DNA from: Vampirovibrionales bacterium
GTDB taxonomy: Bacteria; Cyanobacteriota; Vampirovibrionia; Vampirovibrionales; JAGQHJ01
NCBI GenBank assembly: GCA_025449835.1
Contig: JANWIO010000052.1
Location: forward strand, 183 to 64,182
Direction of reading: 5' to 3'
DNA: 64,000 nt
How positions within the stretch are numbered: position 1 is the stretch's first letter; each line of letters begins with the position of its first letter. The translations under genes were made by a program, and so were the position numbers. The notes under the pieces are model-generated. The model was not told the origin of the DNA, ran no database searches, and worked only from the letters and a program-made list of their open reading frames with translations. Positions 2,723-19,034 of the stretch are shown piece by piece.

Positions 2723-3811
2723 TTAGCCTGTTGGCAATTTTATATTTATTCCGAGATTCGCTAAGAACTGCTGAAAATCTTGAAGGAATGTCTGTGGCGA
2801 ATTAGTACCGGTATTAACATTATCTGCTCCACCGGCCAATAAGTTGGCAAAAGGATTATCTCCAGACCAACTTTGGAATTCAAGAGGGCTAACGTTGCTA
2901 TTTACAGGCGAAGTGGGTGGATTGCTGGTAGGACTGGCTGAAGAGGAGACTGTTCCACTTGAATTACCATCATTATTGGCTACACTACTATCCAGTTTAA
3001 CAGGGGGTAGTGTGCCTAGTATGGGGGGAGGATCGTTGTCAGAAGATTTTACACCTAAGGGCCCCGGATCACTTCCGCCAGTCCAAACGACCTCAATAGG
3101 GGGTGTGAATCCGGTAGGAGGAATAGGATTGCTTCCTCCTACCTGTATAGGTGCACCTACGGGGTCACGATCCCCGTCTGAGTCTTCAGAATCAGATGGC
3201 TGAGACACTACGGTTGAACTTGTACTCGATGTCGTTGGGGCAGTGTCCGAACTTACATTTGGTGAAGGAGCCGGGACAGTAACCGATGTTGTTGACGTCG
3301 TTGAAGTATCTGTTGAGCTGCTGCTATCTGTTGATGGCGCTGTAGAGCTAGAGCTACTCGTTGTAGAACTGCTCTCTGTTGATGGGGCTGTAGAGCTAGA
3401 GCTACTCGTTGAAGAACTGCTATCTGTTGATGACGGTGTAGAGCTAGAGCTACTCGTTGAAGCACTGCTATCTGTTGATGACGGTGTAGAGCTAGAGCTA
3501 CTCGTTGAAGGCTGAACTGATTTATCATCATCGTCATTATCATTATCTTTACGGGAAATATTGGCTTGAATGGAGAGAAGGCCATTCTGATTGGCATGAT
3601 TTAAAGCGTTTTGTAAACCCCAATTTTGACGATCCCCATCTTTATCTGTTTTAGAATCCGGTTTTTTACTGGAAGAAGGTGGCGTTTGGGGTTGTATGGA
3701 AGACTTTGAACCACCATCATGTTTTTCGTGAGAATCTTTTTTCTTATGATTATCCCAGTTCGCATGTAAGTTTACGTGACTATCAAGTCCTCTTCCACCA
3801 ATTCGTGTCAT
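2723..3811 (-). CDS. Ser/Thr-rich mucin-like repeat protein (362 aa) with an internal 16-aa tandem repeat
   Basis: Long ORF with a strong RBS (AAGGAGAGATTCC before the ATG at 3811); repetitive block STPSSTDSSASTSSSS x about 4; acidic DNDDDDK stretch; no obvious signal peptide. Confidence 0.6.
   Translation of the reverse strand: MTRIGGRGLDSHVNLHANWDNHKKKDSHEKHDGGSKSSIQPQTPPSSSKKPDSKTDKDGDRQNWGLQNALNHANQNGLLSIQANISRKDNDNDDDDKSVQPSTSSSSSTPSSTDSSASTSSSSSTPSSTDSSSSTSSSSSTAPSTESSSTTSSSSSTAPSTDSSSSTDTSTTSTTSVTVPAPSPNVSSDTAPTTSSTSSTVVSQPSDSEDSDGDRDPVGAPIQVGGSNPIPPTGFTPPIEVVWTGGSDPGPLGVKSSDNDPPPILGTLPPVKLDSSVANNDGNSSGTVSSSASPTSNPPTSPVNSNVSPLEFQSWSGDNPFANLLAGGADNVNTGTNSPQTFLQDFQQFLANLGINIKLPTG
3321..3512. 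repeat. 48-nt tandem repeat, about 4 copies, coding (inside the 2723..3811 CDS)
   Basis: Unit ctgctatctgttgatgRcgStgtagagctagagctactcgttgWagMa recurs at 3321, 3369, 3417 and 3465. Confidence 0.8.
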
Positions 3812-4005
3812 GGAATCTCTCCTTTATTTTTTCGCTTTCAAAAATATCAATTATTTAAATAAAAACAATCAATCTTCTTGAATTGCGGCAATTTCTCGAT
3901 CTTTATTTTTTCCTAAGAGAGAGATATAAATTTTTTATATACGAGTCCCGTCTTATATAAAACGGATTTTTACGGGATATTCAACGCCCCATTTTTCGCA
4001 AAAAA

Positions 4006-4050
4006 AGTGGCCCCAGTAGGATTCGAACCTACAACCAAGCGATTATGAGT
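4006..4050. repeat. 45-bp direct repeat (attR-like): duplicate of the 3' part of tRNA-Met at 18961..19005
   Basis: agtggccccagtaggattcgaacctacaaccaagcgattatgagt is identical at 4006-4050 and 18961-19005; the copy at 4006 lacks the 5' half of the tRNA. Confidence 0.85.
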
Positions 4051-4561: not shown

Positions 4562-5662
4562 TCATCCCCGAAGAACCTCTACCAGGCCTTTGTTTATGTA
4601 GTATATTTCTCGACCGATCTTAAATGGCTCCAAGAGACCTATTTGACTAATCTTTTGGAGATATTCAGAGGCTGTCTGCCTTTTAGCAATACCGTCTTGG
4701 ACTAAAAAATTTATCTTACAGTATGGATGTTTGAAAAGTAGCTCTAATAGCTCTCTACTATAGATAGATGGAAGCTGGTCACGGATCAGCCGCTTAGTTT
4801 GCTCCATCAGGGCAACAATCTCTTGCACTTTAGCGAGTGTTTCCGCAGCAGTTTCTTCGACGGCCTTTAAGATATAAAGTGTCCATTCTTCCCAAGCATT
4901 TTCTTCCGTAATAGAACGTAAACCTTGATAGTATCGTGTCTTATTCTCAATAATGTAACGGCTTAAGTAGAGAATGGGCCAATCTAGAAGGTTTTGGTCA
5001 ACTAAATATAAGATGTTTAGGATTCTACCTGTTCGTCCGTTTCCATCGGGAAAAGGATGTATGGCTTCGAACTGATAGTGTCCAATAGCCATTTTGACCA
5101 AGGGATCCCAGTCCAGGTGGGGTTCATCATTAAAGAAACTTTCTAGATTGGCTAATTTGTCTCGTATAACGGCTTCTCCCTCTGGTGGGGTATAGATAAT
5201 ATTACCTGTAACAGGATTGGCAATTTTGGTACCTGGTAGTTTTCGAATATCAAAGTTAGGGCCTTTTATTTCTTGAGCAATTTCAACAAATAAACGAGTA
5301 CTGAAGGGTGTACCATTCTCAAGCTGTTTAAACCCATACCAAATAGCCTCTCGATAACTAATAACTTCTTTTGTCGCAGGATCCATTTGGATTGTCGGAT
5401 CAGAAGCGGCTTTAAATAAGTCATCTTGTGTTGTTACAATATTTTCAATCTCAGATGATAGCCGGGCCTCTTGTAAAATCAAGGCATCAATCATTAATCT
5501 TGGATTAGGGACTTGAGCTAAGCGCCCTTTTAACTCAGCCAACCGGCTCCTTGAGCGAATAATCTGTTTCAAAATAGCCACTGTTTCAAAATCCACAGAG
5601 GGGGGTAATAAGGGCAAATCATTATAAGGTAGGTTTGGGTCGTGATTATTCATAATTTCCAA
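4562..5662 (-). CDS. Fic/DOC family protein (probable auto-inhibited class II AMPylator) with a C-terminal winged-helix-like region
   Basis: Canonical Fic motif HPFPDGNGRTGR; N-terminal inhibitory-type motif SSEIEN ([ST]xxxE[GN]) at about residue 69-74; Fic_N-like start LPYNDLPLLPP. Confidence 0.85.
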   Translation of the reverse strand: MEIMNNHDPNLPYNDLPLLPPSVDFETVAILKQIIRSRSRLAELKGRLAQVPNPRLMIDALILQEARLSSEIENIVTTQDDLFKAASDPTIQMDPATKEVISYREAIWYGFKQLENGTPFSTRLFVEIAQEIKGPNFDIRKLPGTKIANPVTGNIIYTPPEGEAVIRDKLANLESFFNDEPHLDWDPLVKMAIGHYQFEAIHPFPDGNGRTGRILNILYLVDQNLLDWPILYLSRYIIENKTRYYQGLRSITEENAWEEWTLYILKAVEETAAETLAKVQEIVALMEQTKRLIRDQLPSIYSRELLELLFKHPYCKINFLVQDGIAKRQTASEYLQKISQIGLLEPFKIGREIYYINKGLVEVLRG

Positions 5663-5729
5663 CCTTATTTTTATTCTGCCAGCTTAGCAGATTTTTTCTT
5701 GAAGAATGTGATACTTCTCATCGTTATAC

Positions 5730-8700
5730 TTATTCCCCAAGCTCTGCGGCTGTTAGTGCGGCTGCCTGTTCGAGAACCGTCTGAGTCGCTGACTCCTGTT
5801 TGTCAGGAGGGTAGTTGTATTTTCGGAGTATCCGCCTGACCATAACCCGTAACTTTGCTTGAACGCTTTCTTTCTTGGTCCAGTCAATGGTGGCATTCCG
5901 TCGAACCGTATCCACCAAGTCTCTGGCAATTGCTTTAAGCGTTTCATCTCCAAGCTCCATGACGGCACTATCATTGACCTCAAGAGCCTCATAAAAAGCA
6001 GCTTCATCTTCCGCAAGCCCTAGCTCTTCCCCTCGTTCTTGTGCCTTTTTGAAATCCTTGGCCATATCCACCAGTTCTTGGATTACTTGGGCAGTTTCAA
6101 TCTGCTTGGCATAATATCGCTTGATGGCATCATCTAGCATTTCTGAGAACTTCTTGGCTTGAACCACATTCTTTTTGGAGCGAGTTTTTATGGCGTCTGT
6201 CAGAAGCTTTCGTAGGAGTTCGAAGGCAAGGTTCTTTTTCTCAATACCTTGCACTTCCGCAAGGAACTCATCCGACAGAATGGAAATATCCGGTGTTTTG
6301 AGCCCAGCCGCTGAAAAAATATCCACAATTTCGGTGGAAGAAACAGCCTTAGAAACAATCTGCTGAAGTGCTGTATCCAATTGCTCAAGCGTCTTACCTG
6401 ACCCAGTGGTACTTTTTGCGAAGGCAGCTCGGATCGTTTGGAAAAGTCCAACTTCGTCTCTAATCTCGATGGCTTCATCTGTAGTAGCAGCCAGAGCAAA
6501 AGCATGGGATAGTTCCAAGACAGCCTGCATGTATCTCTGCTTTCCGTCATCTAGGCCAAGAATATGCTCCATGGCCTCTGTAATGGTTGTTAAACGCTCT
6601 GTAGGTGAACCAGTTAAACCTTTACCATAATCATATCCACTGAGTAGGTTTCGGGTCAGTTCCACCTTCTCCAACATGACCGCTATGGCTTCTTCAATTG
6701 GGATACCAGCCTCTCGTCGATCACCTTCGGTATAATCCATCAAGGCTTTTTTGAGTAGATCGGCAATAGCGATATAATCCACCACTAAACCGCCTTGCTT
6801 ATCCTTGAAGACACGATTCACACGAGCAATGGCCTGCATCAGATTATGCCCCTTCATAGGTTTGTCAACATACATGGTATGCAGACACGGCGCATCAAAG
6901 CCGGTCAACCACATGTCCCTTACAATAACCAGTTTTAAAGGGTCACTTGGGTCTTTTAACCGCTTTGCTATAGGGTCCCGCTTATCCTTGCTTCTTCTAC
7001 CATGGAGCTGCCAGTTTTCTGGGTCTGATGAAGAACCTGTCATAATGACCTTGATTTTACCTTTGGTGTCATCCTCACTATGCCAATCGGGACGTAGGGC
7101 AGTGATGGCTTCATATAACGCAACGCAAATCCGGCGGCTCATTCCCACAATCATTCCCTTACCCGCCATGGCGGCTATACGTTCTTCAAAATGAGTCACA
7201 ATATCCTGAGCGACTAGCTTAATACGATTTTCTGCCCCCACCAGTGCTTCAATACGAGACCACTTGGATTTTTCTTTTTCAACGCGGCTCAGCTCCTCTC
7301 CTTCGGTAACCTCTTCAAAATCCTCATCCAGATATTTCTTTACTTCTTCATCAATACCAATTTTGACCAGACGGCTCTCATAAAAGATTCGAACAGTTGA
7401 GCCGTCTTCCACAGCCCTTTGAATATCGTAGATATCAATGTAATCTCCAAAAATAGCAGGGGTATTCTTGTCTATTGCCTCCACCGGAGTTCCGGTGAAA
7501 CCAATAAAGGAAGCGTTCGGCAGGGCCTGTCGAAGCATTGCAGCAAAACCTACCGATTTTTTGCCGGTTTTCTGATCAATCTTCGTTTTAAATCCGTACT
7601 GGCTCCGATGGGCTTCATCGGCAATGACCACAATATTTGAACGGTCTGAAAGCAGTGGAAATACTTCTTCTCCTTCAGAGAGGGCAAACTTCTGGATGGT
7701 GGTAAAAATTACCCCACCGGAGCCAGTTTGTAAAAGTTTTCGCAGATCATCACGATCACCAGCTTGGACAGGCTTTTGCCTCAAAAGATCACGACAGTGA
7801 CCAAAAGTACCAAACAATTGATCATCCAGATCATTCCGGTCAGTCAGAACCACCAACGTTGGGTTTTTCATGGCTGGGTGTTGGATAATCTTACCAGCAT
7901 AAAAAACCATGGTAAGACTCTTACCAGAGCCTTGTGTATGCCAAACAACCCCAGCTTTATGCTCTCCACGTGTGGCCTCGATGGAACTATCAACAGCCTT
8001 GTTAACTGCATGATATTGGTGGTACCCAGCGATTTTTTTGATGATTTGCTTACCGTCATCTTCAAACACCGTGAAATGTCGAAGCATATCCAGAAACACT
8101 CGCTGATTGAAGACGCCCTTGATAAGAGTTTCAAGCTCTGGAAGGCCTTTAGAGGTAATAGTACTGCCATCAATGGTTCGCCATGGCATAAACCTCTCAA
8201 AATCAGCCGAGAGCGTTCCCATCCGTGCCTCGATACCATCTGAAATAACCATCACCCCATTGGTGCTGAACAGCGAAGGAATGTCATTTTTGTAATTTTG
8301 AAGCTGGGTAAAGGCTTTATCTATAGTGGCGTTTTCATCCCCGACATTTTTGAGTTCAATGACAGCAACAGGTAGACCATTCAAGAAAATAACCACATCC
8401 GGGCGTCTGTTTTTACCACCTTGCTCCACCGTAAATTGGTTGACAGCTAGCCAATCGTTATTTTCAGGATGTTCAAAATCTACGGGATAAACCGGCACAT
8501 AATGCGTTGAGCCGTCTGTCCGTCGTTTCTCTACCGGAATTCCATTAACCAACAATTGATAGAATGCCCGGTTGGTTTCAAACAAACTAGGAAGGTCCAA
8601 CCGGTTGAGTTGGCGAATGGCTTCCTCGATCATATCTGACGAAACACCGGGATTGATGGTTCCCATGGAACGCCTTAAGCGAGTTGCTAAGAGCGTCTCT

Positions 8701-8825
8701 TGATAATCCCCTCGCTCGGCCCACATTTCCTCTGGGGCAATCGTTGGCCCAAAAACAACCTCATACCCTAGGGAATTTAACCACTCAAGACAGGCTTCTT
8801 CAACACAGCTTTCAGAGAAATTCAT
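5730..8825 (-). CDS. hsdR: type I restriction enzyme R subunit (HsdR)
   Basis: 1031 aa; Walker A GSGKSLTM; DEAH box [12 protein letters not shown]; HsdR N-terminal nuclease region; SF2 helicase motifs. Confidence 0.9.
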
Positions 8826-9773
8826 CTAATTTTGTACTGGTCGCTTGGCATCCACATCAAAAAGCTCTTGGTTAATAATAGACTCAACCCGTCCATTAGT
8901 GAAAAAGTGTAAAATGAGTTCAACTTTTTCTGCTGTCATAATTAATAGACCGTCATCATCATATTCTAATCCCAGGTTTCTCTCTTCATTAGCTTGCCGA
9001 AGGCTTATAAGAAACTCACTGTCTCTGTAATAACCCAACTCTTTAACTTTGGCAATCTTTCTCAACAAGCGCAAATTATTCCCAATGTGTAATTCTAATC
9101 CATCGGTACTTTGAAACACATTTAATTGTTCGAACTCGGCAATCACATCATGCTTATCTTGTATCATACCTTCTCGGAAATTGAGATCTAGTTCAAAATT
9201 ATTCTTATAAAAAATAAAAATCGTTCCTGCATAACTAAAGAAGTCGAAATAATCATCTATTTTGAATATAGCTTTATCTTCAAGAACGAGTTCCATATGA
9301 GAAGAGAAAATCAGGTTTATTGCACCCAAATTTTTCTTTGTTGCCCAACCTTTTGGTGCTCTCCTAACAGCAAATAAAGGTAATTGATTGGGCAAATAGA
9401 GTCGTGTGACGTAGAACCAGGCATCAAAGAGCTGATTTTGGGAGTTCGCAATTTCCGGGGGGTCAATACCAGTGATAGTATCCACAATGGATTGGAAATC
9501 TGTTTCGCTTGTTGTAATGGTTAGCAGATTGTCATCTTGATCAACGGTGTTGAAATCATATTCCATAACACCCTGTGCAGAGGAGAGGCGTCTCTGAAAT
9601 ACCGCTTGAAGATTTTGTTGGATATTCTCTCCAATATTTACAAGAAGAACCTCGTAATGTGCGGACTTCTTGACTAAGCGACGTTTAACAACATAGAAGG
9701 ATACTGATGAATTCAGCCAATTTAAAGCCTTAATATTAGCGAGTGTTGGTGATACTTGGGGCATCAACCCCAT
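8826..9773 (-). CDS. hypothetical soluble protein (315 aa) embedded in the R-M operon; candidate KwaB-like (DUF4868?) defence component
   Basis: Stop codon abuts the hsdR start (8825/8826); no catalytic motif recognised; the size and the partnership with the upstream multi-TM protein match the Kiwa architecture. Confidence 0.45.
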   Translation of the reverse strand: MGLMPQVSPTLANIKALNWLNSSVSFYVVKRRLVKKSAHYEVLLVNIGENIQQNLQAVFQRRLSSAQGVMEYDFNTVDQDDNLLTITTSETDFQSIVDTITGIDPPEIANSQNQLFDAWFYVTRLYLPNQLPLFAVRRAPKGWATKKNLGAINLIFSSHMELVLEDKAIFKIDDYFDFFSYAGTIFIFYKNNFELDLNFREGMIQDKHDVIAEFEQLNVFQSTDGLELHIGNNLRLLRKIAKVKELGYYRDSEFLISLRQANEERNLGLEYDDDGLLIMTAEKVELILHFFTNGRVESIINQELFDVDAKRPVQN

Positions 9774-10314
9774 TCCTTTCTGTTACGAGAAACAACCGTT
9801 CGGACAATTCCACAATTCGACAAGACTCATTTTTGCCCAGTCGAGTACCTTTTACAAGAAAAAAATCTTCAAAATCATGCCCATCGCGTTTGTAATGCAC
9901 GTCATAGATGTTGTATCCCATTATGGCCAGAATAGGATTGATAAAAATGTTATGAGTCTTCAGTGTCATCCAATACATGATGACCATAAAGAATGCAAAG
10001 CTCAGCAATAGCTTTATATCAGAGAGATTCAACACGAAAAAAGAAACCATATAGGGGATACTGTAATTAATCAGTTCCCCAGAGCGATTGGAGACTGAAA
10101 CAATTGTAATCGGAGGGGTAGATACTTTCATAAAGTGGACAGAAGCCCATATCACCAGACAACTGAGAGCTGCAAGTGCGAAGATGCTCAAAACCACCCA
10201 AGGGCTCGAGAACCAATGCGTTTTTGAGTCATAATCCTGTATCAGAAAGATGATTGAGAGCGGTGAATAGGCACTGATAAAGATAAGAATGGATGAGAGA
10301 AGTCGCAGCTTCAT
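9736..10314 (-). CDS. small multi-pass membrane protein (192 aa, 4-5 predicted TM helices); candidate KwaA-like defence component
   Basis: Hydrophobic segments LSSILIFISAYSPLSIIFLI, VVLSIFALAALSCLVIWA, SIPYMVSFFVLNL, LLLSFAFFMVIMYWMTL, INPILAIMGYNIY; ATGA overlap with the hsdS stop (10311-10314). Confidence 0.45.
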   Translation of the reverse strand: MKLRLLSSILIFISAYSPLSIIFLIQDYDSKTHWFSSPWVVLSIFALAALSCLVIWASVHFMKVSTPPITIVSVSNRSGELINYSIPYMVSFFVLNLSDIKLLLSFAFFMVIMYWMTLKTHNIFINPILAIMGYNIYDVHYKRDGHDFEDFFLVKGTRLGKNESCRIVELSERLFLVTERNGVDAPSITNTR

Positions 10315-11558
10315 ACAGCAGCCTCCACCAAGACTTCCGCTTCCCGAATTCTAATTTCGCCGCACATTAGCCTGGGGAGGAGCGTATCTCGAATTTTTGA
10401 GAGGTTTTGATTTTCTTCAAGTAAAGCTTCCATTTTTGCTCTAATCGGGCGTACAATCTTTTCGAATTCAATTAACGTAGCAGAGGGTGGTAAGATTGCC
10501 CTTAATTTGGGTATATTCTTCACATTAAGGGCTTCTAAAATTGTCCCCGTATCAATGTTTAAATACATTTCAGAATGATATGTATCCGAAAAGAAGTATT
10601 GGATCAAAAAAGTTGGATAAGGATAATCATTTTTAATTCGAATACCTGTCATATTTCTACCCAACGCAGCTTTTAAATTTGGTGGAATTTGAGCGACAGC
10701 ACCCACGCGACCTACGTTAGTAATGACACAATCACCTTGAGAAGCCTCTATTCTGGAAATCCACTTTTCATACTCCTCATTTGATATCCAAAATATTTTT
10801 GACATATCAAGTAGACCATTATCTTTTATATTGTTGAGCTGAAGTAAGGGTTTTCCTTCATTTTGATACTCGGGTTTTTTAGTATGAAGGCAGTCAATAA
10901 TGTCACAAAAACTACCTAGCTCCCAAACTTCCCAACCTTTTGGAATCTCTCCCAGTTCGCTCTCTTCAAATCCATCTGGAAACAAGGCAGCAATCTCTTG
11001 AGCCAAGCCCTGTGGTTGACGACCTTCGGCTTTGGCTCGCACGGGATCAAAATCGACAAACCAGCTTTTAAACAGCGCCCGGGCAATGCCCTCCAGCGTC
11101 TCATTCATCTTCCGGTTCAGTTCGATTTTATCGTCGAGGGCAGAGAGAACTTCAGCGATAGATTCTCTTTCACCTGACTCCGGAACTCTTACTTCAATAG
11201 AATTTAAAATACTTTGATTTAAAAGTGGCTGTCCAGACCCGGTTCTGTAATCATTTAGATTTAAGCTAGAAAGTAAGTAATACCAGTATTTAGATTGTTT
11301 TAAAGATGGAGTAATGCAAGCAATGGCATTATCAGTAACCCAGCACTTTTTAGCTGAATATTGAGTACTCCCACAATAAGAGCCAACACGACCTATAATT
11401 ATTGTACCTTCATCGGCATTTACGGAGTTAGCTTGGCCAATTACTCCATTAGAGCCAAAAACATTATAAATCCCATTTGAAGAACGATCTGGGGAGGTTT
11501 TACCATTCTTAAAATTGAGTTCTTTTTCTAATCTTATGGTTTTCCATTCACCATCCAT
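10311..11558 (-). CDS. hsdS: type I R-M specificity subunit (HsdS), two target-recognition domains
   Basis: 415 aa; bipartite architecture with the conserved central and C-terminal coiled spacer ([12 protein letters not shown]... / [16 protein letters not shown]); overlaps the hsdM end. Confidence 0.85.
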
Positions 11559-13230
11559 AGCCCACTCTCCCTAACTGGTGTTTCAGGTTTTGAGCCATGG
11601 TGTCACTTTCAGCCGTTTGTTTCTTCAAGGTTTGGGTAAGTCGGGTCATCTTCTCGGAGAAAGGCTCGTCGTCCTCTTGCGCCTCAGCAGTGCCTACATA
11701 TCGGCCCGGTGTTAGCACATAATCATGGTGGCGTATTTCATCCAAAGTGGCACTTTTGCAAAAGCCGGAAATGTCTCGATAACAACCGTCAGGGAATTCA
11801 GTTTTGCATGAGTTATTTTGTTCATCAAGGTGATAAGGATCTTTGAGGGGTTCACCTCGCCAGGAATGGTAAGCATCGGCAATTTTGTAAATGTCCGCTT
11901 TGCTGAGATTCCTATGAACACGGTCTTCCAGATAGCCCAGTTTCCGAGCATCAATGAATAGAATTTCTCCTCGACGATCCCGGAGCTTGGCTTCCCCATT
12001 ATATGGATACTTGATCAGCCCATTGCTACGGTCTTTAGCTAAAAACCACAAGCACACCGGAATTTGCGTTGTATAGAATAATTGTCCTGGGAGAGCCACC
12101 ATACAATCAACCAGATTCTCTTCAATCAAGTTCTTACGAATCTCGCCTTCTCCGCTGGTGTTTGAACTCATTGAGCCATTAGCCAGCACAAATCCGGCAT
12201 ATCCTCTTGGTCCGAGATGAGACACCATGTGCTGTACCCATGCCATGTTGGCATTGCCTACAGGAGGGATACCAAATTTCCAGCGAGCATCCTCCCGTAA
12301 ATGCTGACCACCCCAATCACTGATGTTAAATGGCGGATTAGCAAGAATGAAATCTGCAAAGATATCTTTGTGGAGGTCATTGTGGAAGCTATCGGCATTC
12401 TGTTTACCAAGATCGGCATCGATACCCCGAATGGCTAGATTCATCTTACACAAACGCCAGGTAGTGGGGTTGCTTTCCTGACCATAAATAGAAATATCTT
12501 TTGTGTAACCACCGTGGACTTGAATAAATTTCTCGGATTGCACAAACATACCGCCGGAACCGCAGCAAGGGTCATATACACGGCCTTTGTAAGGCTCTAG
12601 CATTTCAACCAAAACTTGAACTACTGAAGGTGGCGTGTAGAATTCTCCACCACCTTTACCCTCAGCACTGGCAAAACGTCCCAGAAAGTATTCATAAACC
12701 CGGCCCAAAATATCCTGTTTGGGTTTATTTTTCTTGTCTTTGTCTTCCAACTGGGGATCTTGCTCCTTTTGAGCAATTAATTCCAGATTACTGATGAGAT
12801 CAATAAGTTCACCTAAACGCTGTTTGTCGAGTGTAGGACGGTTATAGTCCTTGGGTAAAACGCCCTTTAAAGAAACATTCTCTCGCTCAATAGCCACCAT
12901 GGCATCATCTACAAGTTTCCCGATTTCCGGCAGCTTAGCTTTCTCTAATAAGGATTGCCATCGAGCCTCTTTTGGAACCCAAAAGACATTTTCTGCAAGA
13001 TATTCATCCCGATGTTCCGGGTCTGCACCTTCGGCTTCCTGTGCCTTTAGCTTTTGATATTGCTCATCAAATGCGTCGGAGATGTACTTCAGGAAGATCA
13101 AGCCCAAGGCCACATGCTTGTATTCGGCTGGATCCATGTGGCCACGCATCTTGTCTGCCGTCAGCCAAAGCTGCTGCTCGAACCCAAGCATAGCGGTTTT
13201 ATTCTGTTTGGATGTTTTACTAGGAGGCAT
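11548..13230 (-). CDS. hsdM: type I R-M N6-adenine DNA methyltransferase subunit (HsdM)
   Basis: HsdM N-terminal domain ([14 protein letters not shown]...); SAM-binding site [12 protein letters not shown]; catalytic NPPF ([13 protein letters not shown]). Confidence 0.9.
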
Positions 13231-13321: not shown

Positions 13322-14608
13322 TTATTGTTGCATAACAGAATTGTCTTTCAGGTGTTTCCGATGCAACCAAACCATCATTCTTGTTTGTCGAGTTAAGGAT
13401 AGATGCTGTGTTTGCTGCATGAACTGGTTTAAAGGTTTCACCATGGCCAGTGCTTTTATAGCCCCACGCTCCAACATGTTGACAGGAATGGGATAACCTA
13501 AAACCTCTTTTACCGAATCCTGGACTAATCGTTGACAGTAGTCTACTGATACTGGTAATCCTCTTTTGATTGCGTAAGTGGAGGTAAATAAAAAAGGGTA
13601 GTTTGTTTGCTTTTGACGTGTTTTCAAGAATCTTAGCCATAGGGAAGCAAGCCATTGTGACGAAAGATCAATACAAAACACCCGTTCAGACCTCCCTAAA
13701 CGAGTTGGTTTTTGCTCTTGATAGGATAAAATGGCCTTTTCTTTATCATTTAACTCGATTAAAGGCAATGCCTTTAAAGGTAGTCCATAACCCATGATGA
13801 GAATTAGCATCAATGAAACGGTTAAAGAGAGTTTGTTTTGTTCAATAGCTTGCCATAGTTGGTTAATTTCGTCCTGAGTTGCTGAATAACTTATTCCTAA
13901 AGACTGATGGGACCTAATCGTAAAGTTTGGAACAGAGAAAGAACCATCTAGGGATTTGTAGTAGTGAAATAAAGGCTTTAGATTGGAGAGGATACGCTTT
14001 TTTGAGATTGGTTTGGAGTGAGGATATACATTCATCAGGTAAGTTTGGAGTTCCAAATGGGTAACGGCTTTTAAAGATGTAACTCCGCTTTCTTTCATCC
14101 AAATTTGAAAATGTTTTAATCCCAAAATACAGTCATAAACGCTACGGGAGGAGAACATATTTTCAAGTAGCCAATCGATATAATTACTGACAAAGCCTTG
14201 CTCTAAAGCTGAGAACCCTTGGACAATCCGCCACGTTTTTACCCACTGTCTTTTTTCAATAGGGGTAGCTTCACCATGGCCATGGCGACAAAAGAGTAAA
14301 TATAACCAACTGAGATCATACTGGATCTGCTTGCCGGGTATCTGTGGGCAGGCATGTCTCAAATAGACCTCTGCCTCGGCTAAACTTTTTGGGTTTGGAA
14401 TTTTGGGAATTTGAGCAAGGTCACCCAGCGCAATTAAAGTCTTAGTATGCTTGATATCGTAAGTGGTCAACCCTGACTCATGAGAAATAAACTCATATAC
14501 TGTCAATAATAAGGTTTTGTTCTGAATCCTTTGTGATGGAAACAATACCTCAATTCCATACCTTAAGCGTTCGAAATAATCCACCAAGTAATCGGGTAGC
14601 CGTTCCAT
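13322..14608 (-). CDS. phage-integrase-family-like protein, divergent (core-binding-like N region; catalytic R/H/R/Y not all evident)
   Basis: 428 aa; the segment LELQTYLMNVYPHSKPISKKRILSNLKPLFHYY resembles tyrosine-recombinase core-binding domains; lies in a same-strand array with the bona fide recombinase upstream. Confidence 0.4.
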   Translation of the reverse strand: MERLPDYLVDYFERLRYGIEVLFPSQRIQNKTLLLTVYEFISHESGLTTYDIKHTKTLIALGDLAQIPKIPNPKSLAEAEVYLRHACPQIPGKQIQYDLSWLYLLFCRHGHGEATPIEKRQWVKTWRIVQGFSALEQGFVSNYIDWLLENMFSSRSVYDCILGLKHFQIWMKESGVTSLKAVTHLELQTYLMNVYPHSKPISKKRILSNLKPLFHYYKSLDGSFSVPNFTIRSHQSLGISYSATQDEINQLWQAIEQNKLSLTVSLMLILIMGYGLPLKALPLIELNDKEKAILSYQEQKPTRLGRSERVFCIDLSSQWLASLWLRFLKTRQKQTNYPFLFTSTYAIKRGLPVSVDYCQRLVQDSVKEVLGYPIPVNMLERGAIKALAMVKPLNQFMQQTQHLSLTRQTRMMVWLHRKHLKDNSVMQQ

Positions 14609-14928
14609 TACAAGTACCTCAGTGGGTCATCGAAGATGATAGCTGGATTATCAGGAACCTTACGAAACGGATGGATAATTTTACCACCTTGTCGGCCATG
14701 GTGACTCGGTGTCACCTGAAGATAGGTGCTTAAAGGTAATTGTAATAAATCACACAAGATTTGCGCCGTTTGTAATTTGAGCTCATGAGGTTGTTTGGAT
14801 AAGAGCTTTCTTAAAGCCTGTGGACTAATTGATATTCCCAATTCTGCCTTTAGGGCCTCATGCAGTTGATTGCCGTTGGCGATACCTTTGGCTTCCAGAC
14901 AATCTTTTAAGCGCCATATCAAGGGCAT
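14608..14928 (-). CDS. small protein (106 aa), possible HTH DNA-binding, between the two recombinase-family genes
   Basis: The segment GNQLHEALKAELGISISPQALRKLL is HTH-like; start and stop are tightly packed against the neighbours. Confidence 0.35.
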   Translation of the reverse strand: MPLIWRLKDCLEAKGIANGNQLHEALKAELGISISPQALRKLLSKQPHELKLQTAQILCDLLQLPLSTYLQVTPSHHGRQGGKIIHPFRKVPDNPAIIFDDPLRYL

Positions 14929-14931
14929 TAA

Positions 14932-16011
14932 TCAGCACCCCAATGGGTATAACGGCAATAGATTTGATGGGGTCTTATCCTTGGAATAACCCAAGTAATG
15001 AGAAGCCGTTGATACAAAACTCCATCCAGTTATAAGCATTAGGCTTTTGATATCTCCACCTTGTTCTAAGTAGAGTGTTGCAAATGTCCTACGAAGGGCA
15101 TGCCAACCAAACCCTGAAAAAATGCTAATATCAAAGTCTGATTCTTGAATCTCTCTCAGCAATTGCCTCATCCATTGCCCGGCGGTATGAGTGCTTAATC
15201 TTTCCCCTTTTACGCTTTGGAAAAGAGGAGCTTTCCGTTCCCGAGGAAACTGTCTCAAAAAATTTTGCAGGGTTGCTTTTGCCAATGGGGATATTGGAAC
15301 TTCTCGCTTACGATAACCTGAGCCACAATTCCCTTTACCTCGGACAACCAGGCAAACGTTATCTAAAAGATTCAAGTATTGTATTTCAAGTCCAAGGATT
15401 TCATTGAGTCTTAATCCCATCTCCCCACCAATAACGCACATTAAATGGATTTGGCAGGCCTTCAATAATTCATATCCTTTGAGATTAGAGTTAATACGAC
15501 TCCATGTGTAACGCAAAAAACGCTTGTATTCGGTGGCGGTTAAATAATTACTGTTGGATTTCTGTTCATGGCTTTTTTTAGGGATAGTATAGCGATTCAC
15601 AGGTGATTGAATCGGACCATAAATGGAAGGCAGGTAAAGCGATTTTTGGCCTGTAACATGGATTGTCAGATTTTCTTGTAAAAAAATGCAATAACGTTCA
15701 ATGGCTTTAAGACAGGCGGTTGCTCTTGTTTTTGGAGAAATATCCCGATAACAGGATTCGACGATTTTAGAAGCCAATAGCGGGTTTCCAATATCAAAGG
15801 TATCCACGGGACGTTGAATACTTGGAATTTTTTCATCATTGATTTGTACTTGCTGAAAAACATCATTCAATCGACGAAATTGTTGTTCTCGATATCGCTT
15901 GGTTAGGTTGCGATGATAGAAGCTCGCTTCGTATGCGCTTAAAGCCAGTTGATGGTGTAAAGGACGATCAACCTGATAAACATCTGGTGTGGTTTGAACA
16001 GAACTTATCAT
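14932..16011 (-). CDS. tyrosine site-specific recombinase (XerC/D-like)
   Basis: Catalytic signature GLRLNE (R), VRGKGN (K), GWHALRRTFAT (HxxR), GWSFVSTASHYL (Y). Confidence 0.8.
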   Translation of the reverse strand: MISSVQTTPDVYQVDRPLHHQLALSAYEASFYHRNLTKRYREQQFRRLNDVFQQVQINDEKIPSIQRPVDTFDIGNPLLASKIVESCYRDISPKTRATACLKAIERYCIFLQENLTIHVTGQKSLYLPSIYGPIQSPVNRYTIPKKSHEQKSNSNYLTATEYKRFLRYTWSRINSNLKGYELLKACQIHLMCVIGGEMGLRLNEILGLEIQYLNLLDNVCLVVRGKGNCGSGYRKREVPISPLAKATLQNFLRQFPRERKAPLFQSVKGERLSTHTAGQWMRQLLREIQESDFDISIFSGFGWHALRRTFATLYLEQGGDIKSLMLITGWSFVSTASHYLGYSKDKTPSNLLPLYPLGC

Positions 16012-17724: not shown

Positions 17725-19023
17725 ATGTCCCAAAAATTTACGAAACTGACCCGAATCAATCTCCGAAAGCTGCAACCCGGCCAGCGGTTAAATGAACATG
17801 GCATTATTTTTGAGCGCCTTGCAGATGGAGATGGTCGGTACAGCATTAACATAATGGTTGATGGGGTGCGGATCCACCGGTCTGTAGGCAAGGAGTCCGA
17901 GGGAGTAACACTGACACAGGCACAGGAATTGGTCGAAAAACTAAAAACGGATGCCAGAATGGGGCGGTTAAACCTACCCAAGAACAGAAAAACCTATTTA
18001 AGATTTGAGGAAGCTGCCAACAAGTATCTTGCAAAGCTTGGAGAAGAAGCGGGCAAAGATATCCCTCGGAAAAAGCAGCGTCTAGATCTTTATTTGATAC
18101 CCTTTTTCAAAGGTAAACCTCTGGATAAGATTACCAATTTTGACGTTGAACGGTATAAAAAGGTTCGCATTGATGCCAAGGCATCCAATGGAACCATTAA
18201 CAGGGAGTTGTCCACCTTATCACATCTTCTCAATAAGGCGATGGAATGGGGTTGGATTCATCATAGACCCTGTCAGATAAGGCGCCTAAAAGAGAACAGA
18301 GGTCGGATTGAATGGCTGACCAAAGAAGAGGTACAGAAGCTCCTGAAAGCAGCGAAAGTGGATGATTTCCCTTATGTTTACCCATTTATAGTCATTGCAC
18401 TTGAAACAGCGATGCGACGCATGGAGATTCTTTCTATTGAGATCGAGAATATCAATTTTGAGAAGCGGACGATCTATATCCCCAAAGCAAAAGCCGGAGC
18501 GAGAGAGGCATATATCAGTGAAAACCTTGAGAAATTCTTGAAAAATTACATTGAGCAAACAGTCAAACCTGGACAAAAATGGTTGTTCCCTACAGCAAAT
18601 CAAAAATTGTCTTCTACCGGACATCTGATGAATATCGAAAGACCATTTCGGCGTGTTGTTAAAACTGCCGGACTGGATGCTGCTAAAGTGGTACGTCATA
18701 CATTAAGGCATACCGCCATCAGTCACTTAGTACAAGCAGGGATTGATCTTCCAACGGTAAAGAGAATCTCCGGGCACAAAACGTTGCAAATGGTGGAGCG
18801 ATACAGCCACCAAAATCAGGAGCATATTCAGTTCGCATTAAAACGGCTGGACGATCGCTATCCGATCTTTGATGAAAGCAGCAGTCCAGATTACACCAAA
18901 ATTACACAAAACAAAAAAAATAAGCCTTCAAAGAAACAGCGAAAACCCTTATCTAAGAAGAGTGGCCCCAGTAGGATTCGAACCTACAACCAAGCGATTA
19001 TGAGTCGCCTGCTCCACCATTGA
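17725..19023 (+). CDS. int: P4-type tyrosine integrase (DUF4102/arm-binding N-terminus), 3' end overlapping tRNA-Met
   Basis: 432 aa; N-terminus LTRINLRKLQPGQRLNEHGI... arm-type; catalytic region RHTLRHTAISHLVQAGIDLPTVKRISGHKTLQMVERYSH (HxxR...Y). Confidence 0.9.
   Translation: MSQKFTKLTRINLRKLQPGQRLNEHGIIFERLADGDGRYSINIMVDGVRIHRSVGKESEGVTLTQAQELVEKLKTDARMGRLNLPKNRKTYLRFEEAANKYLAKLGEEAGKDIPRKKQRLDLYLIPFFKGKPLDKITNFDVERYKKVRIDAKASNGTINRELSTLSHLLNKAMEWGWIHHRPCQIRRLKENRGRIEWLTKEEVQKLLKAAKVDDFPYVYPFIVIALETAMRRMEILSIEIENINFEKRTIYIPKAKAGAREAYISENLEKFLKNYIEQTVKPGQKWLFPTANQKLSSTGHLMNIERPFRRVVKTAGLDAAKVVRHTLRHTAISHLVQAGIDLPTVKRISGHKTLQMVERYSHQNQEHIQFALKRLDDRYPIFDESSSPDYTKITQNKKNKPSKKQRKPLSKKSGPSRIRTYNQAIMSRLLHH
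18961..19005. repeat. 45-bp direct repeat (attL-like) within the intact tRNA-Met
   Basis: Identical to 4006-4050. Confidence 0.85.
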
Positions 19024-19034
19024 GCTATAGGGCC
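18963..19034 (-). tRNA. tRNA-Met (anticodon CAT; could also be initiator or the lysidine-modified Ile2 type)
   Basis: The reverse complement GGCCCTATAGCTCAATGGTGGAGCAGGCGACTCATAATCGCTTGGTTGTAGGTTCGAATCCTACTGGGGCCA folds as a cloverleaf with anticodon loop CTCATAA and T-loop GGTTCGAATCC. Confidence 0.85.

Follow-up and report, generated by a model that had tools for sequence, protein, structure and literature searches.

Kiwa is a defence system that has been studied in Escherichia coli O55:H7 and in ECOR strains (Doron et al. 2018; Zhang, Todeschini et al. 2025, PMC11785009; PDB 9mrg, 9mrr, 9mrx, 9mtn and 9nyu). In E. coli, KwaA tetramers in the inner membrane sense the disturbance that comes from phage attachment or conjugation, and KwaB dimers dock on the cytoplasmic beta-barrel of KwaA and bind incoming DNA but leave it uncut; replication and late transcription stall as a result (PMC11785009). 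The DNA mimic Gam binds and inhibits E. coli KwaB, and sharing of Gam with RecBCD rescues the defence (PMC11785009). Here we describe a kwaA-kwaB pair found in 64,000 nucleotides (nt) of contig JANWIO010000052.1 (assembly GCA_025449835.1), hereafter the window, where the two genes lie inside a restriction-modification (R-M) operon of type I. In the reading that we favour, with a probability of roughly 0.85, a Kiwa system sits in an intact type I operon, with hsdS on one side and hsdR on the other, and is carried together with a SoFic gene on an approximately 15-kb tRNA-Met island of a probable member of the Vampirovibrionia.

The locus shares with E. coli Kiwa the order kwaA-kwaB, a KwaA of approximately 190 amino acids (aa) with four transmembrane helices and a cytoplasmic beta-barrel, and a KwaB of approximately 312 aa whose N-terminal half is Rossmann-like and which also has a flexible DE loop and, at its C-terminus, DUF4868. 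Superposed on the solved structures, the predicted folds reach TM scores of 0.73 for KwaA and 0.51-0.57 for KwaB. In contrast, the structure-based identity is 11-17%, the PADLOC subtype is a different one (PDLC00215/PDLC00235) and the DNA comes from an uncultured Vampirovibrionia-like host. Moreover, the pair is joined into the R-M operon and has neither an intergenic region nor a promoter to itself, whereas the studied E. coli systems, cloned under native promoters, are active by themselves (PMC11785009).

The gap between hsdS and hsdR is a hotspot for defence genes (PMC12255303; 10.1101/2024.04.04.588119; 10.1101/2024.01.29.577857), and the arrangement resembles the 'guilt-by-embedding' class, in which nesting on the same strand occurs in Hma, BREX, DISARM and type I R-M systems (Payne et al. 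2024, 10.1101/2024.01.29.577857). A parallel to a whole lineage almost confined to this position is PrrC of EcoprrI (hsdM-hsdS-prrC-hsdR), a defence gene in the same orientation between hsdS and hsdR, which has been cited as almost exclusively embedded (10.1101/2024.01.29.577857). DarTG2 in a type I R-M system of enteropathogenic E. coli (the RRDM island, PMC12255303) and TgvAB in Vibrio cholerae pathogenicity island VPI-2 (10.1101/2024.04.04.588119) are two-gene defence systems that are also co-oriented with hsdS and hsdR between them, and both give complementary protection there. These precedents document a point that an earlier sequence-only reading of this DNA had invoked, that defence systems nest inside R-M loci. 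RloF is likewise nested between hsdS and hsdR. PrrC, however, consists of one anticodon nuclease, held latent by the R-M complex and activated by a phage anti-restriction peptide, whereas KwaAB would be a pair of membrane sensor and DNA binder without a nuclease; the dependence on R-M is on record for PrrC, and the signs of one at the Kiwa locus, conserved linkage and co-divergence, are comparative and indirect. DarTG2 and TgvAB belong to other cargo families, and the RRDM island has an RptR repressor upstream, whereas none was identified at the Kiwa locus.

Identity and anatomy of the kwaAB cassette

Both proteins were matched by curated hidden Markov models (HMMs) of Kiwa. The PADLOC model PDLC00215 matched KwaA at E 2.5e-46 over residues 1-179 of 192, and 12 other KwaA models matched it as well. 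For KwaB, the model PDLC00235 matched the whole length (residues 8-314) at E 1.7e-84, five more KwaB models matched, and Pfam PF16162 (KwaB/DUF4868) scored 75.2 bits (8.8e-21) against a gathering cut-off of 26.3. No Pfam family was matched by the 192-aa protein because the Pfam release used lacks the KwaA model PF28043, an annotation that homologues of KwaA already carry. E-values of 1e-46 to 1e-84 place both genes, as sequences, far beyond chance. When the proteins were compared by phmmer with the PDB sequences, KwaA matched 9mrg_A, a chain of solved KwaA (E 6.8e-5), and KwaB gave no match. A homologue profile and a fold search were therefore required for KwaB, and a profile built from 17 KwaB homologues matched the solved KwaB chain 9mrx_K at E 2.5e-4.

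The AlphaFold2 (AF2) model of KwaA had a mean predicted local distance difference test (pLDDT) score of 82, with helices at residues 5-27, 38-61, 78-94 and 100-120. A strand in the first intracellular loop (ICL1; residues 69-75) and the C-terminal beta strands (134-181) together formed a beta-barrel, which is the KwaB docking site in known Kiwa. Kyte-Doolittle peaks were found at residues 4-27, 34-65 and 89-120. The membrane protein had first been described as having four or five transmembrane helices; by model and hydropathy the four hold and the fifth does not. When the KwaA model was searched against the PDB with Foldseek, all seven significant matches, which were also the top seven, were KwaA chains, the best being 9mrx_A (E 2.7e-9, TM score 0.73) with a full-length superposition. 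The AF2 model of KwaB (pLDDT 77) had a two-domain fold with a Rossmann-like N-terminal half and a helical C-terminal half, and its disordered residues 143-169 correspond to the flexible DE loop (134-174) of E. coli KwaB (PMC11785009). The top six Foldseek matches of KwaB were all KwaB chains, with E-values from 1e-9 to 1e-7 and TM scores of 0.51-0.57, and the next match had an E-value of 0.35.

The DNA-contact residues that were mutated in E. coli KwaB are N134, R142, R167, D169, K187 and R233 (PMC11785009). In the profile alignment to 9mrx_K, the clade-invariant R235 aligned with R233 and the clade-invariant K187 fell one column off K187 of E. coli. The remaining four residues fall in the DE loop, which could not be aligned.

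These findings indicate that the 192-aa protein and its 312- or 315-aa partner are a genuine Kiwa system, with kwaA then kwaB on one strand, as judged from sequence and predicted structure. The sequence-only reading had guessed a Kiwa-like pair and had proposed to check it by KwaA and DUF4868 HMMs, PADLOC and structure prediction. The HMM matches to both proteins decided for that guess, PADLOC called KwaA, KwaB, the type I R-M subunits and SoFic, and in the fold search (Foldseek) only KwaA and KwaB structures were significant.

The genes run hsdM-hsdS-kwaA-kwaB-hsdR on the minus strand, and every junction, read base by base, was overlapping or abutting. There is an 11-nt overlap of hsdM with hsdS. 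The TGA stop of hsdS and the ATG of kwaA share the ATGA at 10311-10314, the TAA stop of kwaA (9736-9738) lies within the kwaB open reading frame (ORF), and the TAG of kwaB (8826-8828) is immediately next to the hsdR ATG at 8825. All five ORFs, the ATGA overlap and the stop/start abutment at 8825/8826 agreed with the first description. The 38-nt kwaA/kwaB overlap also given there (9736-9773) stands for the longest kwaB ORF, which starts at 9773, but is 29 nt for the likely start, an ATG at 9764 that gives 312 aa. This start is favoured because a putative Shine-Dalgarno sequence, AAAGGA, lies 9 nt upstream within the 3' end of kwaA, because the database protein (P0001) has 312 aa and because homologues have 312-314 aa with an invariant M1. 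KwaA has 192 aa at this locus compared to 184 aa in nearly all relatives; a single relative (L071) also has 192 aa, with a kwaA/kwaB overlap of 14 nt. The C-terminal extension of 8 residues, which lies past the beta-barrel at pLDDT <50 in the AF2 model, accounts for the 29-nt overlap.

The type I system that surrounds the pair looks functional from its sequence, because the catalytic motifs of HsdM and HsdR are intact and HsdS has two target-recognition regions. In HsdM, the S-adenosylmethionine motif DPCCGSG was found at residue 220 and the catalytic NPPF at 298; in HsdR, the nuclease motif D143...E157-x-K159, the Walker A motif GSGKS at 299 and DEAH at 403 were all present. Since there is no intergenic space, the five genes are most likely read as one transcript from a promoter upstream of hsdM, and translational coupling is probable both for kwaA with hsdS and for hsdR with kwaB. 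A weak promoter candidate upstream of hsdM (13304-13276) was noted and not used as evidence.

Linkage of a Kiwa clade to type I operons

A word-indexed search showed that the KwaB subtype is sparse, with 17 proteins of which the best after the locus's own copy was 58% identical. With KwaA there were 158 matches, the best 120 of which were 58-76% identical. Across phyla, identity to the proteins of this locus was 58-76% for KwaA and 36-58% for KwaB, and the lower conservation of KwaB could reflect faster evolution of an effector that is the target of phage inhibitors. A tblastn search of KwaA against the PLSDB plasmids gave distant relatives only, at 29-33% identity, and thus no close model with an annotation.

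For the analysis of gene contexts, 31 loci were taken from GTDB species genomes with the KwaB profile and 53 from JGI metagenomes with the KwaA profile, and HsdM, HsdS, HsdR, KwaA, KwaB and SoFic were located in each locus by tblastn with several divergent type I queries. Loci were dereplicated at 97% kwaA nucleotide identity and were assigned to the clade when KwaA was at least 45% identical to that of this locus, which left 45 informative groups that were tallied by hand. In 39 of the 45, kwaAB and a type I R-M operon stood joined on one strand. The type hsdM-hsdS-kwaA-kwaB-(cargo)-hsdR accounted for 30 of the 39, with both sides seen in 17 groups (0 to 4.4 kb of cargo) and one side seen in 13, and in the other nine kwaAB was appended 77-78 nt past a complete hsdM-hsdS-hsdR operon. 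Two groups were rearranged: in L001 the pair was flanked by insertion sequences (IS) beside an R-M system on the opposite strand, and in L010 it stood beside an hsdM remnant and a Gabija-like pair. In the last four groups no R-M gene was found in the available flank; L013 alone among them offered 10 kb of informative flank on either side. In a distant clade (KwaA 31-38% identical), one of 17 loci was embedded (L020), compared to 39 of 45 (Fisher p = 4e-9). The hosts of embedded loci were Betaproteobacteria, Bacteroidota, Desulfobacterota, Verrucomicrobiota, Cloacimonadota and Nitrospirota.

In L010 (8848-14679), from a Verrucomicrobiota metagenome-assembled genome (MAG), a truncated hsdM remnant with HsdM_N only is followed by kwaAB, the Gabija-like pair (an OLD-type ATPase and a UvrD helicase) and a second, complete type I system, an array that looks as if the embedded cassette had decayed and been re-used within a defence island.

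The junctions were conserved as well. The gap from hsdS to kwaA was -4 nt (ATGA) at this locus and at eight others, and it was at most 31 nt wherever kwaA directly follows hsdS; in L003 an AAA_13 gene lies between the two. The gap from kwaA to kwaB was 0-5 nt almost everywhere among the relatives. A minimal form, with kwaB abutting hsdR, was found at this locus and in L003, L006, L038 and L066. In other relatives the cargo between kwaB and hsdR consisted of other known defence genes: DarTG in L012, which carries kwaAB and darTG together in the hsdS-hsdR gap; HEC-01AB and a Schlafen/AlbA ATPase in L011; another Schlafen/AlbA protein in L008; DUF3800 in L005; and SoFic-like genes in L015 (11340-12413) and L056 (11949-12434). 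SoFic-like genes were also present downstream of kwaB in L014 (1254-1532) and upstream of kwaA in L031 (6970-7929). The L003 locus (Sulfuricella sp. T08; 4980-9335) has its own peculiarities: the protein encoded between hsdS and kwaA is a 783-aa AAA_13 ATPase, the type I operon also holds a HEPN/MNT-like pair whose nucleotidyltransferase is fused to HsdS, and the whole operon sits among hydrogenase maturation genes.

Pairwise identities were correlated across the embedded loci (Mantel r = 0.65, p = 2e-4 for KwaA and HsdR; r = 0.63, p = 4e-4 for KwaA and HsdM). The clade sits with at least three HsdR families, and in L011 and L056 hsdR differs while hsdM stays of the type found at this locus. 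Because hsdR is exchanged while hsdMS-kwaAB stays, kwaAB is bound more closely to hsdMS than to hsdR. The appended class is in essence one lineage, with HsdR 96-98% identical to that of L007 in five fragmentary loci, and in a neighbour-joining tree of KwaA and KwaB it formed one tight subclade nested among embedded loci. The unlinked loci were scattered in the same tree as single branches within the embedded clade; ancestrally, this Kiwa clade was thus probably embedded.

Such a linkage could mean more than shared housing. Kiwa and the type I enzyme would then form a functionally integrated and mutually dependent module of five genes, and the clade would be a distinct, ancient Kiwa lineage built into R-M operons. 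One possibility is that KwaB or KwaAB holds the entering DNA at its membrane entry site and hands it to the R-M complex or its motor; another is that Kiwa guards R-M in the manner of PrrC and, once R-M is blocked, either fires or mops up DNA-mimic anti-restriction proteins. Both would parallel the guarding of EcoprrI by PrrC, though by way of a membrane sensor. The cross-phylum extent of the linkage and its near absence from the sister clade speak for this idea, as do the place of kwaA directly after hsdS with its conserved 4-nt overlap while other cargo follows kwaB (L003 excepted), the co-divergence of KwaA with both HsdM and HsdR, and the tree, which suggests that embedding is ancestral. 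DNA mimics, Ocr and ArdA among them, classically target type I enzymes, and PrrC is a gene embedded between hsdS and hsdR that physically depends on its host R-M system. The binding of Gam to E. coli KwaB, and the rescue of defence when Gam is shared with RecBCD, point the same way (PMC11785009). Some cooperation between Kiwa and R-M is at least plausible, because both act on entering DNA and both are targeted by DNA-mimic inhibitors, and functional coupling is possible.

Mutual dependence, however, fits poorly with members of the same clade that have no R-M gene within 10 kb (L013), are separated from it by IS (L001) or stand beside a degraded hsdM (L010), and with a clade that spans at least three HsdR families and keeps hsdMS-kwaAB when hsdR is swapped (L011, L056). 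KwaA and KwaB show no extra domain or length change compared to the stand-alone proteins, the Kiwa systems of E. coli and others function alone when cloned (PMC11785009), and co-divergence would also arise if a tightly packed operon were simply transferred as a whole. We therefore regard the integrated module as unlikely, although it is the most serious competitor of a nested Kiwa system that works beside its host operon.

A second alternative is that kwaAB are passengers in decay or without expression, so that a dead insertion merely parts hsdS from hsdR. The 29-38 nt overlap and the 8-residue KwaA extension are near-unique among relatives with 184 aa and gaps of 0-5 nt, and they may mark a small lesion at the kwaA stop. 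Yet both ORFs are full length against the HMMs, with no frameshift and no internal stop, and every residue that is invariant among the homologues is present. The extension sits in a low-confidence tail outside the beta-barrel, KwaA identity of 58-76% over at least 120 homologues from different phyla points to purifying selection, and transcription probably must traverse kwaAB since hsdR has no upstream region of its own. This pseudogene or passenger reading was rejected as very improbable, given intact ORFs, retained invariant residues and a conserved KwaA.

Least credible of all is an undescribed sensor and effector pair, which the sequence-only reading had kept open, or a housekeeping membrane pair, Kiwa-like merely in size and topology: the low identity to the characterised E. 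coli proteins (11-17%) and the missing Pfam family of the 192-aa protein in a release that lacks the KwaA model are compatible with it, but it is effectively refuted by the full-length, highly significant matches to curated KwaA and KwaB HMMs, the Pfam KwaB score far over its threshold, the PF28043 annotation of homologues and fold matches that are all KwaA or KwaB, with no housekeeping family matched.

The tRNA-Met island and its host

The R-M operon with its nested Kiwa pair, SoFic and two tyrosine recombinases lie on an island of approximately 15 kb that is integrated in a tRNA-Met gene (Table 1). The first description had placed the pair on a mobile island next to a Fic protein; the 51-nt repeats, the tRNA-Met gene and the integrases bear this out, and the Fic protein is a full-length SoFic.

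Table 1. Features of the kwaAB locus and its island (window positions)
Feature	Positions	Strand	Description
Direct repeat, distal border	4000-4050		att-like; 51 nt, duplicates the tRNA-Met 3' end; 96% identical to 18955-19005 (repeat search)
SoFic	4562-5662	minus	Fic-domain defence protein; 67 nt downstream of hsdR; PADLOC SoFic E 1.2e-116, full length; Pfam Fic_N, Fic, SoFic-like_C
hsdR	5730-8825	minus	Restriction/translocase subunit, 1031 aa; Pfam HSDR_N, SWI2_SNF2, T1R_D3-like, T1RH-like_C; PADLOC REase_I E 0
kwaB	8826-9764	minus	Predicted Kiwa DNA-binding effector, 312 aa; 315 aa from the longest ORF start, 9773
kwaA	9736-10314	minus	Predicted Kiwa membrane sensor, 192 aa; four transmembrane helices and cytoplasmic beta-barrel
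AAAGGA	9774-9779	minus	Putative Shine-Dalgarno-like sequence within the kwaA 3' end, 9 nt 5' of the kwaB ATG at 9764
hsdS	10311-11558	minus	Specificity subunit, 415 aa, two target-recognition regions; Pfam Methylase_S 1.6e-22 (two matched stretches); PADLOC Specificity_I 1e-83
hsdM	11548-13230	minus	Type I R-M methyltransferase, 560 aa; Pfam N6_Mtase 2e-108, HsdM_N 3e-26; PADLOC MTase_I 2.8e-223
428-aa ORF	13322-14608	minus	No Pfam family
106-aa ORF	14608-14928	minus	Follows the second recombinase
Second tyrosine recombinase	14932-16011	minus	Pfam Phage_integrase 6e-16; inside the island, upstream of hsdM
Island integrase (tyrosine recombinase)	17725-19023	plus	Pfam Phage_integrase 1.1e-30; adjoins the tRNA
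Direct repeat, proximal copy	18955-19005		Overlaps the tRNA-Met 3' end; integration site
tRNA-Met	18962-19034	minus	ARAGORN

The ORF of the island integrase extends approximately 60 nt into the tRNA-Met gene on the opposite strand. The second recombinase and the 106-aa and 428-aa ORFs (13322-16011, minus strand) are tightly packed, with a 1-nt overlap or a 3-nt gap between neighbours; this trio may be the recombinase module of the island or an inverting, shufflon-type regulator of the R-M locus. Just outside the island, a low-complexity ORF of 362 aa rich in Ser, Thr and Pro (2723-3811, minus strand) matched no Pfam family and contains 48-nt tandem repeats at 3264-3503.

Beyond the island lie chromosomal genes, including rpe and trigger factor. 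For the trigger factor, the closest named relatives came from Vampirovibrionales and Melainabacteria MAGs, at no more than 65% identity, which makes an uncultured member of the Vampirovibrionia the probable host.

Proposed working and significance

By analogy with E. coli Kiwa, KwaA tetramers would serve as the membrane sensor and KwaB dimers as a non-cleaving DNA binder. If the five genes share one transcript, with the probable coupling in translation of kwaA to hsdS and of hsdR to kwaB, both defences would be produced together. The type I enzyme would destroy unmodified DNA that bears its sites, and Kiwa would cover phages and plasmids that escape restriction by being modified, by being free of sites or by encoding anti-restriction proteins. 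A restriction system based on sequence and methylation would in this way be paired with a sequence-independent barrier triggered at DNA entry, and transfer of the island would move the whole package as one unit.

Several points weigh against a nested Kiwa system that works in this manner. The identity to the studied E. coli Kiwa is 11-17% in structural alignments, and phmmer reached the solved KwaA at 6.8e-5 only and a solved KwaB by profile only, so that the mechanism is borrowed from a remote relative. Of the six DNA-contact residues of E. coli KwaB, two could be aligned, one of them shifted by one column, and confidence in the KwaB model is moderate (pLDDT 77, TM scores of 0.5-0.57). A scan for promoters and terminators gave 19 promoter-like matches compared to 19.9 expected in shuffled sequence, which is chance level, and the gene spacing is the sole basis for the single-promoter operon. 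Phage defence by this locus is predicted from E. coli Kiwa through family membership.

The Kiwa pair itself belongs to a known family in a known kind of arrangement. In the literature searched, the lineage-wide linkage to R-M appears not to have been pointed out before. Kiwa is unmentioned in the text and searched supplements of the guilt-by-embedding survey (10.1101/2024.01.29.577857), and in the Kiwa preprint mobile-element contexts were analysed and R-M linkage was not discussed (PMC11785009). The sole earlier trace found is a row in a table of a Vibrio pangenome study, in which KwaA, KwaB and type I S, R and M co-occur as a cluster, without comment (PMC12409351).

These findings explain what had looked like a mystery pair as Kiwa, for which structure and mechanism were described in 2025, in a known defence hotspot. 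They also extend Kiwa to the non-photosynthetic Cyanobacteriota (Vampirovibrionia), given the probable host. Finally, a Kiwa lineage that almost always lies in a type I operon offers a natural test between shared regulation and transfer on the one hand and mechanistic cooperation on the other.

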